A DNA stretch of 64,000 nucleotides from Peptococcaceae bacterium UBA5757 (GTDB taxonomy: Bacteria > Bacillota > Dehalobacteriia > UBA4068): contig DIFD01000015.1 of assembly GCA_002418965.1 (NCBI GenBank), forward strand, positions 215,088 to 279,087. The letters run 5' to 3'. Numbering within the stretch: the first letter of the stretch is position 1; every line of letters begins with the position of its first letter. The notes beneath the pieces are model-generated. The model was not told the DNA's origin, did no database searches, and saw only the letters and a program-made list of their open reading frames with translations. Of the stretch, positions 5,923 to 35,206 are shown one piece after another. The position numbers and the translations under genes were made by a program.

Positions 5923-6004
5923 GCCAGAGGGGAAATCGGATGTATCAATCGGTCTTTTGCCATCAGGTCAGAATAGATCTTATTCTAAAAAGAAGATAGA
6001 TTAA

Positions 6005-6038
6005 AAAGCCTTACGGTGTGATACCATAAGGCTTTTTG
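6005..6038 (+). terminator. Rho-independent terminator after ftsH
   Basis: Hairpin aagccttacggtgtgataccataaggctt followed by ttttt. Confidence 0.6.
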
Positions 6039-24133: not shown

Positions 24134-24409
24134 TCAAGGTTCCAGGGGGATTCGTTTGAGTTCAAAAATTACCGGCACATCAGGGTCGGGACATGCCCAT
24201 GTTGTTACGTCTCTGTTTGGCGCCCAAGGGAACTGTCCCCCGTACAGTAAGGCTGCCACAGCCGAACGGATAGAGTCATAGGCAAATTGGCATAATCCCG
24301 GCGGGGTTTTTTCAGTGAATTCAAACTGATCGCCGACTTTGTGTCCGTAAGAACAAACACCTGTTCCTCGGATCTCGATGATGGTTGCAATGACTTTGTA
24401 GTGGTACAT
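24134..24409 (-). CDS. Small Cys-containing conserved protein (resembles the TIGR04076 family, identified from memory). The ORF is open to 24472.
   Basis: MYHYKVIATIIEIRGTGVCSYGHKVGDQFEF...GLCQFAYDSI...LLYGGQFPW...WACPDPDVPVIFELKRI. Same strand as selB and 115 nt downstream of it. Confidence 0.5.
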   Translation of the reverse strand: MYHYKVIATIIEIRGTGVCSYGHKVGDQFEFTEKTPPGLCQFAYDSIRSAVAALLYGGQFPWAPNRDVTTWACPDPDVPVIFELKRIPLEP

Positions 24410-29557: not shown

Positions 29558-30463
29558 ATGCAAACGGAAAATAATCAGCCTAAAAGAACCAAAAAGCATT
29601 TGCCTTTGTTATTGATTGTTGTTGTGATTATTGCTGCTTTAGCCGGTTATAAAATATATCAAAACAGTAAAATGAATGATGCCTTGACTGCTGCCCTGGC
29701 AAAAAGCGATGAAGAGACACAAGATTTGTCCCGGCAGCCTTCCGCTCTTGAGGGCGAAGAGGGGTATGTGCTTACCGGCGTGCTTTCGCCGATTCACAGC
29801 TACAGCGTTGCTGCAAAGGTAGGCGGTCAAGTGCAGGAAGTTGCTGTTGAAAAAGGGGTTCCGGTCAAAATGGGGGATATTTTGGTACGCCAAGACGCGA
29901 CGGATGTACAGCTTACAGCCGGGCAGGGGTCTACGACAGATGAACTGTTACAGCGTTTGCAAGAAACGTATCAACTGGCAGAAGATACGTATCAAAAAAA
30001 CAAGAGTTTGTATGATCAAGGTGTTATTGCGGAATCTGTGCTCAGACAATCCCAAACCCAGCGAGATAATGCCAAACTCCAGTATGAAGGAACAGCCAAC
30101 TCCATTGCCCAACAAACGGCCAAGACCATCATCAAAAGTCCCGGAGACGGCATTGTAACCGGCTTAACGGTTCAAGTTGGCGACTATCTTGCGGCAGGGG
30201 CACAAGTTGCCAGTGTGATTGATATCTCGCAGTTGATTTTAAAAGGAACCGTTCCGGAAAGTATCTTGCAACAAATCAAAGAAGGACAAAAGGTAAGCGT
30301 GCAAATAGAATCTTTAGATAAAACGGTTGATGGCGTTATCACGTTCGTCAGCCCGGCAGCTGTTTCATCAGGGCAGATGTTCCCCGTTGAGATTACGATT
30401 ACCAATGATCAGCAAGCAATCAAAGCAGGTATGTCGGCGTTAACTACACTGGGAATAGAATAA
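29558..30463 (+). CDS. Efflux periplasmic adaptor subunit (HlyD / biotin-lipoyl-like)
   Basis: 301 aa. N-terminal TM, coiled-coil, then beta-barrel segments. Confidence 0.78.
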   Translation: MQTENNQPKRTKKHLPLLLIVVVIIAALAGYKIYQNSKMNDALTAALAKSDEETQDLSRQPSALEGEEGYVLTGVLSPIHSYSVAAKVGGQVQEVAVEKGVPVKMGDILVRQDATDVQLTAGQGSTTDELLQRLQETYQLAEDTYQKNKSLYDQGVIAESVLRQSQTQRDNAKLQYEGTANSIAQQTAKTIIKSPGDGIVTGLTVQVGDYLAAGAQVASVIDISQLILKGTVPESILQQIKEGQKVSVQIESLDKTVDGVITFVSPAAVSSGQMFPVEITITNDQQAIKAGMSALTTLGIE

Positions 30464-30464
30464 C

Positions 30465-31321
30465 AAGGGACGGTTCCTTGTTTGACTTTACCTCGGAGAT
30501 GTGCTAAACTATTCCCCGAGGTGATTTTATGCCAAGAACATCGAGATCAAAAAGCAATAGTGGAGTCTATCACATTCTTTTGAGGAGTATCGATCAGCAA
30601 CCCATATTTAAAAAAGATGCGGAGTGCGAGCGTTTTTTGGATATTCTCGCAGTCTATCAGAAAAAAACAGGATATCAACTGTATGCCTATTGTTTGATGG
30701 TTGACCACGCGCATTTGCTGATACAAGAAGGGGAAGATGATATTTCGACCACTATGAAGCGGATCGGGACAAGCTATGTCAATTGGTTCAATTGGCAATA
30801 TGCGAGGAGTGGTCCGTTGTTTGCAGACCGGTTCAAAAGTGAAGCGGTTGAGGATGGCCATTATTTATTAACAGTGTTGAGGTTTATCCATCAAAACCCT
30901 GTAAAGGCCGGAATAGCCAGAGATGTAAGGGATTATAAATGGAGTAGTTTTCGTGAATATATGGGAGAAAAAAAGCTTGTCGACCCGCAATTTGTTTGGC
31001 GGATGTTCAGCTGCGATCAAGAGCAGGCGATACGTGAATTAATTACGTATAACCAAGAAGACAATAGGGATCAATGCCTTGAAGTACCGGCCGAAAAAAC
31101 CAAAACAATATCGGATGGGGAGATTAAACAAGCCGTCCGTATGAAATACAAAATAGGTTTGGTTACGATTCAAAATCAGACACCGCAAACTCAAGCGGAG
31201 ATTCTTAAATATATGAAAGAGATGAAAGGGACATCGCTGCGGCAAATAGCCCGTCTTACCGGTTATTCGGTTAATAAAATCTATCGGGCTTAAACAAAAT
31301 TAAAACAAAGAACCGTCCCTT
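30465..31321 (+). mobile_element. Compact IS200/RAYT-like unit. A single Y1 (HuH) transposase-like gene is flanked by 19 bp inverted repeats: AAGGGACGGTTC[C/T]TTGTTT at 30465-30483 and its reverse complement at 31303-31321.
   Basis: Flanking repeats read directly, 18/19 identical in inverted orientation. The unit sits between the efflux-adaptor gene and secA. Confidence 0.55.
30529..31293 (+). CDS. IS200-like / REP-associated tyrosine (Y1, HuH) transposase-family protein with a ~100 aa C-terminal HTH-like extension
   Basis: HuH motif VDHAHLLIQ, and YIHxNP-type motif LRFIHQNPVKAGIARDVRDYKWSS. C-terminal LRQIARLTGYSVNKIY HTH-like segment. Confidence 0.75.
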   Translation: MPRTSRSKSNSGVYHILLRSIDQQPIFKKDAECERFLDILAVYQKKTGYQLYAYCLMVDHAHLLIQEGEDDISTTMKRIGTSYVNWFNWQYARSGPLFADRFKSEAVEDGHYLLTVLRFIHQNPVKAGIARDVRDYKWSSFREYMGEKKLVDPQFVWRMFSCDQEQAIRELITYNQEDNRDQCLEVPAEKTKTISDGEIKQAVRMKYKIGLVTIQNQTPQTQAEILKYMKEMKGTSLRQIARLTGYSVNKIYRA

Positions 31322-31427
31322 ATATTAATACGAATAATAGAGGAAAAAAGATTGTAATCGAGAATTTACTTATAGATATAAGAGGATAATCCGACCTCGC
31401 TTGTGGCATTTGGAGGTGCTAAATTTA

Positions 31428-34043
31428 ATGAAATTTCTGAATTTATTTGATGATAACGCCAAAGATATAAAAAAATACAGTAAAACTGTAGAAAAAGTTA
31501 ATGTTTTTGAACCTGAAATCAAGCAATTAACCGATGCAGGGTTGGCGGCCAAAACGCTGGAATTTAAAGAGCGTTTGGTCGCAGGGGAAACCATTGCCGA
31601 TATCCTGCCCGAGGCTTTTGCCGTGGTGCGGGAAGCCGCTTGGAGAACGCTTTCCATGCGGCATTTTGACGTGCAGCTCATCGGGGGATTGGTCCTGACC
31701 GACGGCAGGGTTGCCGAGATGAAAACCGGTGAGGGGAAAACGCTTGTCGCGACTTTGCCTGCCTATCTGATGGCTTTGACGGGCAAGGGCGTCCATGTGA
31801 TCACGGTCAACGATTATCTGGCAAAACGCGATAGCCAATGGATGGGACGCGTCTATAGATTTTTGGGGCTTTCTGTCGGGTTGATCGTTTACGGTTTGTC
31901 TTTTGAAGAAAAGAAAGCAGCTTATGCGGCCGATATTACTTATGGTACCAATAATGAGTTCGGTTTTGATTATTTGCGGGATAACATGGCCGTCCGACCC
32001 GAATTTATTGTGCAGCGGCCGTTGCATTATTGCATTGTGGACGAAGTAGACTCCATCCTCATCGATGAAGCCAGGACCCCCTTGATCATTTCCGGCCCTT
32101 CCAATAAACCGGCCGAAATGTATTATCAAGTCGCCAAACTGATTCCGCGTTTAAAGCGGGATGAAGATTATACCGTTGATGAAAAAATGCGTACCGTTGC
32201 TCTGGTGGAAGAAGCCGTGCCTAAAGTTGAAAAATGGCTGGGTGTCGAAAACCTCTATGATGCGGCCAACACGGAAATAAGCCATCATATTAACCAGGCC
32301 TTAAAAGCGCACGCCTTATTTAAACGCGATCGGGATTACGTGGTTAAAGACGGTCAGGTCATTATCGTAGATGAGTTTACCGGACGTTTGATGTTCGGCC
32401 GCCGTTATAGTGAAGGATTGCACCAAGCCATCGAAGCAAAGGAAAATGTCAAGATTGAGCGTGAAAGCCAAACATTGGCGTCTATTACCTTTCAGAATTA
32501 CTTCCGCATGTATGAAAAGTTAGCCGGTATGACCGGTACAGCCAAAACGGAAGAAGAAGAATTCCGCAAGATTTATAAATTTGACGTGGTGGAAGTTCCC
32601 ACCAACCTTCCTTTAGCCAGAAAGGACTTTCCGGATAGTATCTACCGTACGCAACCGGGCAAATTCAATGCTGTGGTTGAAGAGATCTTAAAAGAGCATG
32701 AAACAGGCCGCCCTGTATTGGTCGGTACGGTTTCTATTGAAAAGTCGGAGATCGTCTCCGGCATGTTGAAGCGTAAAGGGGTTCCCCATCAGGTATTAAA
32801 TGCCAAACACCATGACCGGGAAGCCGAAATCGTCGCTCAGGCGGGGCGCAAAGGGGCTATTACCATCGCCACCAATATGGCCGGTCGTGGTACGGACATT
32901 GTTTTAGGTGGTAACGCGCAAGCTTTAGCCGAGGCGGAAATGAATGCGCATGCCGATTACGAATACAGTGATGAAGAACGTTTGGCTTTGATTGAAAAAT
33001 ATAAGCAGATCACCAAAAAGGAACAGGAAGAAGTTGTCGGTTGTGGAGGTTTGCACATCATAGGGACGGAACGCCATGAAAGTCGGCGTATTGACAACCA
33101 GTTGCGCGGACGTTCCGGACGTCAGGGAGACCCCGGCTCCAGCCGCTTTTTTATCTCGGTGGAAGACGACTTGATGCGCCTGTTCGGCGGTGACAACGTT
33201 GCCGGGATGATGGACCGTATCGGCGTGGATGATAATATGCCGATCGATTCCACACTGATTTCGCGCTCCATCGAATCGGCGCAAAAGCGGGTTGAAAGCC
33301 GCAACTTTGATATCCGTAAAAACGTGCTGGAATATGACGATGTCATGAATATGCAGCGCGGGATCATTTACGGTGAGCGTAAACGTGCCTTGCACGGGGA
33401 AAACCTTCAAGAAAGCATTCACAGTATGATGGAAGAAACCGTGGATGCCGTCATAGCGGAATTTTCCGCTGTCAGCAATTATCCGGAAGAGTGGGATTTG
33501 ACCGCTTTGCGTGAGTCTTTGACTGCATTCATTCCGGAAGGGCTTCCTGACGACGAGACGATTAAAAACGTCAGCAAAGATGAAGTCAACGAACTGGTCA
33601 AGGACAGCCTGTTTGCCTATTATGCCAGGAAGGAAGAACGCCTGACTCCGGAGATTTTACGTCATTTGGAGCGCATGGTTATTTTGAAAGTGGTCGACGA
33701 AAAATGGATGGATCATTTGGACGCGATGGACCAATTGCGCCAGGGGATCGGGTTGCGTGCTTATGGGCAGCGCGATCCGTTGGTTGAGTATAAAAACGAG
33801 GCGTATAATATGTTCCAGGCCATGATCGAAGATATCCGCTCCGACGTGGTTCGCTATTGTATGCGCGTGGAAATCGTAGAAAAAAGAGAGGCTCCCGTAA
33901 AAACGACGGAAAGCAGAAATGAAGAGGCTCAAACCAAGCAGCCCATTCGTAAAGATCCGGGCAAACAGATAGGAAGAAACGATCCATGCCCTTGCGGCAG
34001 CGGCAAAAAGTACAAAAAATGTTGCGGGGCTGACAAAGAATAA
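31428..34043 (+). CDS. secA: Preprotein translocase ATPase SecA (with C-terminal [14 protein letters not shown] zinc-binding tail)
   Basis: Start MKFLNLFDD after GGAGGTG; the ORF is open from 31401. Walker A MKTGEGKT. Confidence 0.93.
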
Positions 34044-34080: not shown

Positions 34081-35206
34081 ATGCTGGAAGATTTAAGACC
34101 TCAATTGCAGAATTGTCAGGAAAGGTTAGAAGACCTCAGGAGGTCTCTTTGACATAGAAAATAAACAAAAAGCCGTTACCGAGTTGGAGGCGTTGACGAT
34201 TGTTCCGGATTTCTGGCAGGACCGGGAGAAGGCGCAAGAGGTGATTGACCAGATCAGTGTCCGCAAGGAAGTGTTGCGGCAGTTTGCTGCCACCTTTGAG
34301 TCCCTGGGAGAAGTACAGGCTCTCTGGGATTTGGCGTTTGAGGCCGATGACGAAGAGATGGCCGGAGAAGCTAAAATAGAATGGACGCGGTTTTTGCCCC
34401 GGCTGGAAGCGTTAGAGCTGGCAACGTTGCTTTCCGGGCCCTATGATTCGCACAATGCAGTACTATCTATGCATGCCGGTGCCGGCGGTACCGAATCGCA
34501 GGATTGGGTGGAAATGCTCCTGCGTATGTATACCCGCTATTGTGAGCGGCATGGTTATAAAGTGGATACCTTGGATTACCTGCCGGGTGACGAAGCCGGT
34601 GTTAAAAGTGTTACCATCTCGGTGGATGGCTTGAACGCCTACGGGTATCTCAAGTCGGAAAGAGGCGTGCACCGCCTGGTGCGCATTTCTCCGTTCGACG
34701 CAGCGGGTCGCAGGCATACTTCTTTTGCTTCTATTGACGTCCTGCCGCAGGTTGCCGATGATCACGATGTGGATATTGATGAAGATGACCTGCGCATTGA
34801 TACCTACCGTTCCAGCGGCAAGGGTGGACAGCATCTCAATAAAACCGACTCCGCCGTACGCATCACGCATATCCCAACCGGCATCGTGGTACAGTGTCAG
34901 GATGAGCGTTCCCAGTTTTCCAACAAAGACAGAGCCATGAAGTTGTTAGCAGCTAAACTACTTGACAAAAAGCTTGCCGAACGCGAGGCGGAACTCAATT
35001 CGTTGCGCGGTCATCAACAGGAAATCGGTTGGGGCAGTCAGATCCGTTCGTATATCTTTCAACCGTATCGTTTAGTTAAGGATCACCGCACCAATTTTGA
35101 AATGGGTAATGTGGACGCCGTCATGGACGGCGATCTGGATGGGTTTATCGGAGCCTGGTTAAAGCAGGCTGCATTACAAAATCAAGTCGATTTGGACGGG
35201 AAGTAA
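34081..35206 (+). CDS. prfB: Peptide chain release factor 2, requiring a programmed +1 frameshift. Frame 0 runs 34081..34149 and ends at UGA; translation continues in the +1 frame from 34151.
   Basis: Classic recoding site AGGAGG-TCT-CTT-TGA-C at 34138-34153. Frame-0 peptide MLEDLRPQLQNCQERLEDLRRSL*. Downstream frame carries the GGQ motif (SGKGGQHLNKTDSAVRI). Confidence 0.9.

Follow-up and report, generated by a model that had tools for sequence, protein, structure and literature searches.

The unit described here lies in a 64,000-nt stretch of contig DIFD01000015.1 from Peptococcaceae bacterium UBA5757 (the window; coordinates are window positions unless another locus is named) and consists of a single gene for a transposase-like protein of the Y1/HUH type between two short inverted repeats. 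Judging from its sequence, it is a TIRtron with a TIRYT gene that probably belongs to TnpA-REP subclass 2.1, a class which has already been published and is little studied. The subclass label is used because the protein resembles the REP-associated tyrosine transposases (RAYTs; REP, repetitive extragenic palindrome), is long and ends in a predicted domain of the helix-turn-helix (HTH) type. The element class itself is thus known, and what is new is a naturally tyrosine-less, selectively maintained TIRYT variant. With a probability of roughly 0.6 we consider the protein to be an immobilised, selectively maintained and catalysis-dead TIRYT, i.e. a domesticated DNA-binding protein which would still bind its own repeats. 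The observations behind this interpretation are the family identity and fold of the protein, the association of gene and repeats with its orientation rules and dimers, the substitution of the nucleophile, and the conservation of the locus in two species at a low ratio of nonsynonymous to synonymous substitution rates (dN/dS).

When the window protein is aligned with the E. coli TnpA-REP structure 4ER8, the catalytic Y115 falls on Phe119, which is part of the motif RFIHQNP. The initial annotation had reported a YIHxNP-like motif at this place; the actual sequence is FIHQNP, with the phenylalanine at the position of the catalytic tyrosine. Of the class-2 signature Y---NP the N-P is kept (F119-I-H-Q-N123-P124) and the tyrosine is gone, and no replacement tyrosine is present near position 119. 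Among 117 homologues in which the motif could be read, 114 have tyrosine and three have phenylalanine, namely the window protein, P0049 and P0118. In addition, of the 80 alignment columns conserved to at least 90% in the other 83 sequences, 14 have a deviating residue in the window protein, the median being 2 and the next highest value 8. These deviations include G20S, N22D, N59D (beside the HUH motif), H96P, Q99A and Y119F; twelve of them fall into residues 1-141, the other two are L157W and F171L (157-171), and none is located in the terminal HTH domain. Ranked by the number of deviations, the three phenylalanine variants all fall within the top four.

Neighbour-joining places the window protein and P0049 as sisters on the two longest terminal branches of the tree; the pairing may be genuine or an artefact of long-branch attraction. 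P0118 is placed within tyrosine-bearing proteins, which means at least two losses of the tyrosine in the family (window/P0049 and P0118). The P0118 locus has GGGGACAGGG-type repeats on both sides. At the P0049 locus (L203, 6726-6764) the stem and the TTGACT -35 box have been retained, while the asymmetric core of the upstream repeat runs in the opposite direction and is shorter by one base (GACCGTCCC, coding strand); a downstream repeat could not be detected. P0049 and P0261 form a second pair of F119 proteins, 96% identical to each other and both intact.

Apart from the nucleophile, the identity of the protein as Y1/HUH transposase-like, as first proposed, is confirmed. Pfam Y1_Tnp (PF01797) matches it with an E-value of 4.7e-13 (49.8 bits, cut-off 23), and the HUH motif is present as H60-A-H62; H60 is invariant and H62 nearly so (at least 90%) in a family alignment of 84 sequences, and both are invariant in an alignment of 20. 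The NCBIfam model NF047646 (REP_Tyr_transpos) gives 76.2 bits, just under its cut-off of 80, as compared with 13.5 bits for NF033573 (transpos_IS200) with a cut-off of 55. By sequence (phmmer), E. coli TnpA-REP (4ER8) is the sole match in the PDB. An AlphaFold2 (AF2) model built from the alignment of 84 homologues has a mean predicted confidence (pLDDT) of 89.7, and a Foldseek search with it again ranks 4ER8 first (E 1.6e-8, template modelling score 0.75), the transposases of IS608, ISDra2 and IS200 following at about 4e-5. About 2,200 homologues are detectable; most of the best ones are about 253 aa long and come from Clostridia, Negativicutes and Bacilli, the nearest one outside the 90% cluster of the window protein being 56% identical.

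The C-terminal HTH-like extension that had been noted from the sequence appears in the AF2 model as a separate five-helix domain. Four of its residues (R238, Q239, R242 and G245) are invariant across the family. Matches to Pfam HTH models are weak: HTH_28 and HTH_23 reach E-values of about 0.1 on the window protein, and among the 84 family members HTH_24 is matched in nine and HTH_23 in four. When the domain is searched in isolation, the best fold matches are the DnaA DNA-binding domains 3PVP and 8BTG (probabilities 0.95 and 0.66, at E-values of 0.3-0.4 which are not significant). The superposition has a root mean square deviation of 2.9 Å over 65 columns and is taken as a lead only.

The repeats are AAGGGACGGTTCCTTGTTT at 30465-30483 (+) and AAGGGACGGTTCTTTGTTT at 31303-31321 (-), which are identical at 18 of 19 positions, as had been annotated for a Y1 gene bounded by 19-nt inverted repeats between the efflux operon and secA. 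In a repeat search the pair grew to 25 nt, with 88% of the positions complementary. If up to three mismatches are allowed, the flanking pair represents the only two matches in the 64 kb, and two or more matches were obtained in none of 100 shuffles; likewise, the exact 10-mer core GGGACGGTTC occurs in the window at these two sites only. Both searches bear out the statement that the window contains no further copies beyond the flanking ones. The third core-like site GGGACAGTTC at 24230-24239 (-), inside a 112-aa open reading frame (ORF) of unknown function and without a flanking palindrome, is probably a chance match.

Each copy had been described as part of a hairpin. This holds for the left copy, which folds as single-stranded DNA at -5.3 kcal/mol (z -3.5), and fails for the right copy, which has no fold on either strand (0 kcal/mol). 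No GTAG tetranucleotide was found beside the two repeats; the conserved bases are those of GGGACGGTTC at the apex of the hairpin. Compared with the motif GGGGWSAS, the window core AGGGACGG matches at 6 of 8 positions and the family consensus GGGGACGG at 7 of 8, and some relatives (e.g. L020, L029 and L206) contain GGGGACAG, which matches at all 8. An Rfam scan of 30300-31500 at E <= 1 gave no match, and PHROGs gave a single weak match, to a family of unknown function.

The association between gene and repeat was analysed in 80 homologous loci fetched from reference genomes (803 kb in all), in which the flanks of each gene were searched. A significant inverted repeat surrounds the gene in about 45 of about 70 testable loci, nearly always with the core GGGGACGGTTC(T). 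In all, about 50 distant homologues in unrelated surroundings have inverted hairpins with the core GGGACGGTTC and a covarying outer stem on both sides. Upstream of the gene, the core is read on the coding strand and precedes the ATG by 59-72 nt; downstream, it is read on the opposite strand, mostly about 12-60 nt past the last matched residue, i.e. near the stop codon. The exact core 10-mer occurs 229 times in the 803 kb (shuffled 10-mers: mean 1.0, maximum 6). At all 80 loci the neighbourhood of the gene is free of secA, prfB and HlyD genes. The repeats hence travel with the gene and not with its neighbours, which for practical purposes rules out the suggestion that they belong to a conserved terminator unrelated to the gene, the core flanking homologues in dozens of unrelated contexts.

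For the analysis of the stem, 71 flanking copies were aligned; only copies with the exact core were included, so that invariance of the core in this alignment is by selection. The outer stem (7-8 bp on each side of the core) varies yet stays complementary, 83% of the cells being paired. Double changes were counted in 158 cells, as compared with 64 expected from shuffles, and none of 500 shuffles reached this value; the signal collapses when the pairing partner is slid by one column. Two positions of the core form G·T pairs in the G-rich strand but not in the other one, and the hairpin is therefore strand-asymmetric.

Repeat copies are also found away from the genes. Counting only cores more than 300 bp away from any Y1 gene, there are 109 copies (a density of about 1.6 per 10 kb), which are spread over 30 of the 80 loci; dense loci are found in Bacillus litorisediminis (L044), Halobacillus locisalis (L064), Mesobacillus persicus (L066), Neobacillus niacini (L035) and a Fimenecus metagenome-assembled genome (L037). 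Together with L034, L059 and L075 these constitute dense arrays of GGGGACGGTTC hairpins in Bacillaceae and Clostridia, with up to 19 copies in 12.8 kb, and many of the hairpins in these arrays are arranged as '+ then -' dimers 30-60 bp apart. Among copy pairs less than 120 bp apart, 28 are '+ then -' and none is '- then +', which is the same orientation as around the gene; such close pairs look like gene-less mini-elements comparable to REPINs. Firmicutes TIRYT (subclass 2.1) proteins thus have a cognate hairpin repeat with the unusually conserved core GGGGACGGTTC, and in some Bacillaceae and Clostridia this repeat has multiplied in the form of REPIN-like dimers. In the literature searched we found no description of this Firmicutes hairpin, its conservation across orders or its dimers. 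A search of metagenomes returned at least 120 stretches matching AAGGGACGGTTCYTTGT, 21 of 120 adjoining a TIRYT gene and none of those listed coming from the source sample, and is uninformative, a rough, uncomputed estimate placing this number at the chance level for a 17-mer in a collection of this size. Two neighbouring TIRYT paralogues, only a few kb apart and each flanked by hairpins of its own, are present in several genomes (L013, 6001-6768 and 9507-10073; L022, 6001-6723 and 7640-8371; L081, 4680-5243 and 6001-6399; L009, 6001-6759 and 12511-12759).

The conservation of the unit was assessed with an ENA contig of a related species (L204), which was found by a search with the neighbouring HlyD protein. 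HlyD is 87% and SecA 96% identical to the window proteins, and the gene order is the same in both (selB, marR, MFS, hlyD, hlyD, Y1 gene, secA, prfB). The Y1 protein of L204 is identical at 230 of 254 positions (90.6%) and likewise has F119, D59, P96 and A99. According to Nei-Gojobori estimates between the window and L204, dN/dS of the Y1 gene is 0.12 at a dS of 0.40 (0.14 for residues 1-150 and 0.09 for residues 151-254), values which can be compared with 0.20 and 0.145 for the two hlyD genes, 0.055 for secA, 0.12 for selB and 0.13 for marR. The left repeat together with the -35 box is identical at 26 of 26 positions and the right core at 10 of 10. The flanks are more diverged: 9 of 16 positions are identical between the stop codon and the right core and 34 of 41 in the stretch containing the spacer, the -10 box and the Shine-Dalgarno (SD) sequence, and the 3' end of hlyD contains a 17-bp indel. 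A relative with the gene at the same position and without the flanking repeats would speak against the annotated unit; the orthologous locus in L204 keeps both cores. The tyrosine-less gene is old, vertically inherited at its present site and constrained like an ordinary gene, a finding that is difficult to reconcile with an active transposon or with a neutral relic. Since the occupied site is common to species at a dS of about 0.4, the 'insertion' must be old as well.

An empty HlyD-secA junction was sought for comparison, and no clean one was found among the available sequences. The site is occupied in the nearest relative, L204, and the next HlyD homologue (54%) belongs to an efflux operon located elsewhere. 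In relatives with SecA identities of 72-73% (L207, 4378-5001; L208, 4202-5001), comF-like/hpf genes lie directly upstream of secA-prfB-transketolase, and neither the efflux operon nor a TIRYT/Y1 gene is present upstream of secA. The Y1 gene is thus placed at a synteny breakpoint, the selB-marR-MFS-hlyD block and the Y1 gene replacing comF-like/hpf in the window and in L204. In L204 (2856-4384) the MFS transporter gene of the efflux operon, which encodes 509 aa in the window, is broken up into two ORFs of 130 and 377 aa, due to either a frameshift/pseudogene or an assembly error.

The left repeat begins 2 nt inside the hlyD stop codon (30461-30463), and its 3' stem arm is directly followed by the -35 box TTGACT of a predicted promoter, the two overlapping by 1 nt, so that any protein binding to the left repeat would sit on the gene's own promoter. 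Comparison with the homologous loci points in the same direction: TTGAC is found 3' of the core in 13 of 35 upstream copies, in 1 of 36 downstream copies and in 16 of 158 other copies, and 22 of 27 upstream regions contain an extended -10 box (TGnTAnnnT), which in most cases precedes the ATG by 26-29 nt, as compared with 2/36 and 10/158 in the respective controls.

A second hairpin in the 5' region of the window is kept in L204 (approximately 5980-6014); folding of the whole region gives -27.1 kcal/mol in the window and -29.6 kcal/mol in L204. As the upstream arm of this hairpin precedes the transcription start, which is predicted near 30516-30518, the SD sequence would be sequestered only in transcripts reading through from hlyD. 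An SD-sequestering 5' hairpin was also considered as a feature of the whole family and was rejected, z being below -2 in just 4 of 27 loci. As a lineage-specific feature, the hairpin of the window recalls the translational control of IS200.

Table 1. Sequence features of the TIRYT unit in the window
Feature	Position	Strand	Remarks
Left terminal repeat, hairpin AACAAGGGACGGTTCCTTGTT	30462-30482	+	variable outer stem around core GGGACGGTTC (30467-30476)
Left arm of long-range inverted repeat	30465-30489	+	25 nt, 88% complementary to 31297-31321
Sigma-70-like promoter	30482-30510	+	predicted; -35 TTGACT 30482-30487, 17-nt spacer, extended -10 TGcTAAACT 30502-30510
Second hairpin (TACCTCGG...CCGAGGTG)	30489-30523	+	would pair with the SD sequence; forms in window and L204
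SD sequence GAGGTGA	30518-30524	+	ahead of the Y1 ORF
TIRYT / RAYT-like HUH-Y1 gene	30529-31293	+	254 aa; HUH H60-A-H62 at 30706-30714; Phe119 codon 30883-30885 (F-IHQ-NP)
Predicted C-terminal helical HTH domain	31114-31290	+	residues 196-254, five helices, AF2 pLDDT about 90
Right terminal repeat	31297-31321	-	core GGGACGGTTC at 31310-31319, 17 nt after the stop codon; outer stem degenerate

The Y1 gene is the single ORF between the repeats (30529-31293, +, 254 aa) and is placed between hlyD and secA. Upstream lies a MarR-MFS-HlyD-HlyD operon with the second HlyD-type adaptor gene in last position, downstream secA-prfB. The prfB gene for release factor 2 has a classical programmed +1 frameshift site (AGGAGG TCT CTT TGA C) within 34082-34153; its start codon ATG lies at 34082, and a TGA follows in frame at 34150-34152. 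Of this gene, only the downstream frame (34184-35206) appears in the mechanical ORF list.

By analogy with TnpA-REP and REP/REPIN, tyrosine-bearing relatives of the window protein, which in the wider Firmicutes family have a complete HUH plus Y---NP active site, would recognise the folded repeat and process it. A protein with F119 should be unable to form the covalent intermediate, and its element would be immobile. Most likely, the element can no longer cut or move, because of the exchange of tyrosine for phenylalanine, the further changes N59D, H96P and Q99A at near-invariant positions close by, the loss of the right stem and the lack of other copies in the 64 kb. The F119 protein may still bind GGGACGGTTC via its HUH domain and/or the C-terminal HTH domain, and binding at the left repeat would repress the promoter of the gene itself. 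Autoregulation would be the simplest activity, since the left repeat abuts the -35 box of this promoter. Any role for the host beyond this, be it an influence on secA, which lies about 100 bp past the right repeat, or the blocking of incoming active relatives, is speculative. Taken together, we tentatively propose, as a scenario with somewhat less than an even chance, that a catalysis-dead RAYT-like protein (Y119F, N59D, H96P, Q99A) was exapted as a sequence-specific DNA binder which is kept by selection together with both cores of the former transposon ends and which would regulate its own promoter and possibly its neighbours, or block active relatives.

Several points weigh against this interpretation. 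DNA binding, autoregulation and loss of cleavage are inferred here from sequence features, and the promoter is predicted from a consensus match plus comparative conservation. The likeness of the C-terminal domain to DnaA domain IV falls short of statistical significance, and a profile search of PDB sequences with this domain returned no match. The dN/dS values come from one pairwise comparison. As the HUH histidines and N123 are kept, a metal-dependent activity without a covalent intermediate is conceivable. Finally, the search for repeat copies covered the 64-kb window, and it is possible that dispersed copies, or an intact paralogue acting on the repeats, exist elsewhere in the source genome.

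Other explanations have to be weighed against the domesticated binder. Neutral decay, i.e. an inactivated element which drifts to loss and happens to be undisrupted so far, is rather unlikely. It would agree with the highest number of deviations from conserved residues in the family (14/80) on one of the two longest terminal branches, with the degenerate right repeat and with the other early F119 lineage (P0049, L203), in which the right repeat is lost entirely. However, the ORF is intact with 254 aa in both species, dN/dS of 0.12 (0.14 in the HUH domain, 0.09 in the C-terminal part) lies in the range of the flanking housekeeping genes, the promoter, the SD sequence and both cores are conserved, and the second F119 pair (P0049/P0261) is intact as well. 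We consider it quite unlikely that the unit is an active autonomous mobile element, that is a TIRtron which still transposes by means of a protein that cuts the terminal hairpins like RAYT/IS200-type enzymes. The intact HUH motif, N123-P124 and whole fold, the presence of both cores in the correct inverted orientation and the occurrence of relatives in unrelated genomic contexts, some of them with amplified repeats, are what such an element would display; yet its nucleophilic tyrosine is a phenylalanine with no new tyrosine nearby, it occupies the same site in species at a dS of about 0.4, it is present as a single copy with no other repeat in 64 kb, and its right hairpin is lost.

Much less room is left for explanations that separate the repeats from the protein or the protein from its family. 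It is very improbable that the inverted repeats have nothing to do with the protein and serve hlyD and the Y1 gene as ordinary terminators or mRNA-stabilising hairpins. The left hairpin does start at the hlyD stop codon, REP-like hairpins are known at the 3' ends of genes (PMC3733652), and a terminator-like site was called at 30462-30482, though on the - strand. Against this, no terminator was called on the + strand, the right copy lacks any fold, the core is asymmetric and invariant within a variable stem, and the same 10-nt core accompanies homologues in their dozens of unrelated surroundings. A classical IS200/IS605-family insertion sequence with tnpA alone is hardly credible. The Pfam Y1_Tnp match and the single small gene would fit, but the NCBIfam IS200 score of 13.5 bits is far from the cut-off of 55, the motif is of the class-2 type (x---NP) and not Y---Q, the ends are inverted repeats instead of distinct subterminal hairpins of a left and a right end, tnpB is missing, and the C-terminal HTH domain is foreign to IS200 TnpA. 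The initial annotation, which favoured a RAYT/REP-type or domesticated element over a classical IS200/IS605 one, is therefore upheld by the NCBIfam scores (76.2 versus 13.5 bits) and by 4ER8 as best match by sequence and fold, as well as by the hairpins with the same core that flank homologues, the fixed site in a second species and purifying selection.

RAYTs are the textbook example of 'domesticated' bacterial transposases, and to our knowledge every RAYT characterised so far retains the catalytic tyrosine. Loss of the nucleophile in a protein that is kept by selection, together with two repeat cores, would point to a DNA-binding role separated from DNA cleavage. With two putative binding sites and one promoter, the window unit offers a simple system for the host role of RAYTs. 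If the exaptation reading with its recurrent loss of tyrosine is true, it would describe a repeated route from a REP-type transposase to a tyrosine-independent function. As a by-product, the analysis provides a widely conserved Firmicutes hairpin repeat cognate to the TIRYT family, which went undetected in a survey of 2018 (PMC6006769).

Among known systems, the window unit most closely resembles the TIRtrons described by Di Nocera, De Gregorio & Rocco in 2013, in which RAYT-like genes (TIRYTs) are flanked by long terminal inverted repeats and not by GTAG REPs; TIRtrons have a common GGGGWSAS motif, and moderately abundant families of their terminal repeats occur in dimers or clusters (PMC3733652). 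The window unit likewise consists of one RAYT-like Y1 gene, which exceeds canonical RAYTs in length and has a putative C-terminal HTH-type domain, between terminal inverted repeats at fixed distances with a G-rich motif, and in the wider family the repeats are sometimes amplified in dimers or clusters. In contrast, catalytic tyrosine and HUH motif are stated to be conserved in all published TIRYTs (PMC3733652), and the window protein has phenylalanine. Quentin et al. (2018) equated TIRYTs with TnpA-REP subclass 2.1, i.e. long proteins with a C-terminal Bac_DnaA_C, HTH_23 or HTH_28-like domain, gave Y---NP as the class-2 signature and found no REP-like sequences near subclass 2.1 genes (PMC6006769), whereas we find covarying hairpins which are dispersed in several Firmicutes genomes.

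The similarity to E. coli TnpA-REP (RAYT, YafM), which acts on REP/BIME sequences (4ER8; Messing 2012; Ton-Hoang 2012; Corneloup 2021, PMC8266576), comprises the best match in sequence and fold, the HUH motif with x---NP on the same helix, the position of the gene between inverted palindromic repeats and the REPIN-like dimers in relatives of the window protein. The window repeats differ in that they lack GTAG and have their conserved bases at the apex of the hairpin and not at its foot; the core is conserved across Firmicutes orders instead of being species-specific, with two copies only in the window, and the protein has an extra C-terminal domain of 100 aa and no catalytic tyrosine. With the TnpA proteins of the IS200/IS605 family (IS608, ISDra2, IS200) the window protein shares the HUH/Y1 fold (Foldseek E about 4e-5), but these have the active-site helix signature Y---Q, no terminal inverted repeats and no C-terminal HTH domain. 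The closest parallel to the substitution itself is a laboratory one: the same change was made in HUH enzymes such as ISDra2 TnpA (Y132F, PDB 2XO6) in order to trap the DNA-bound, cleavage-dead enzyme, and the 2XO6 complex shows that DNA binding is retained in such mutants. In the window the substitution is natural, is fixed in at least two species and is accompanied by further changes around the active site.

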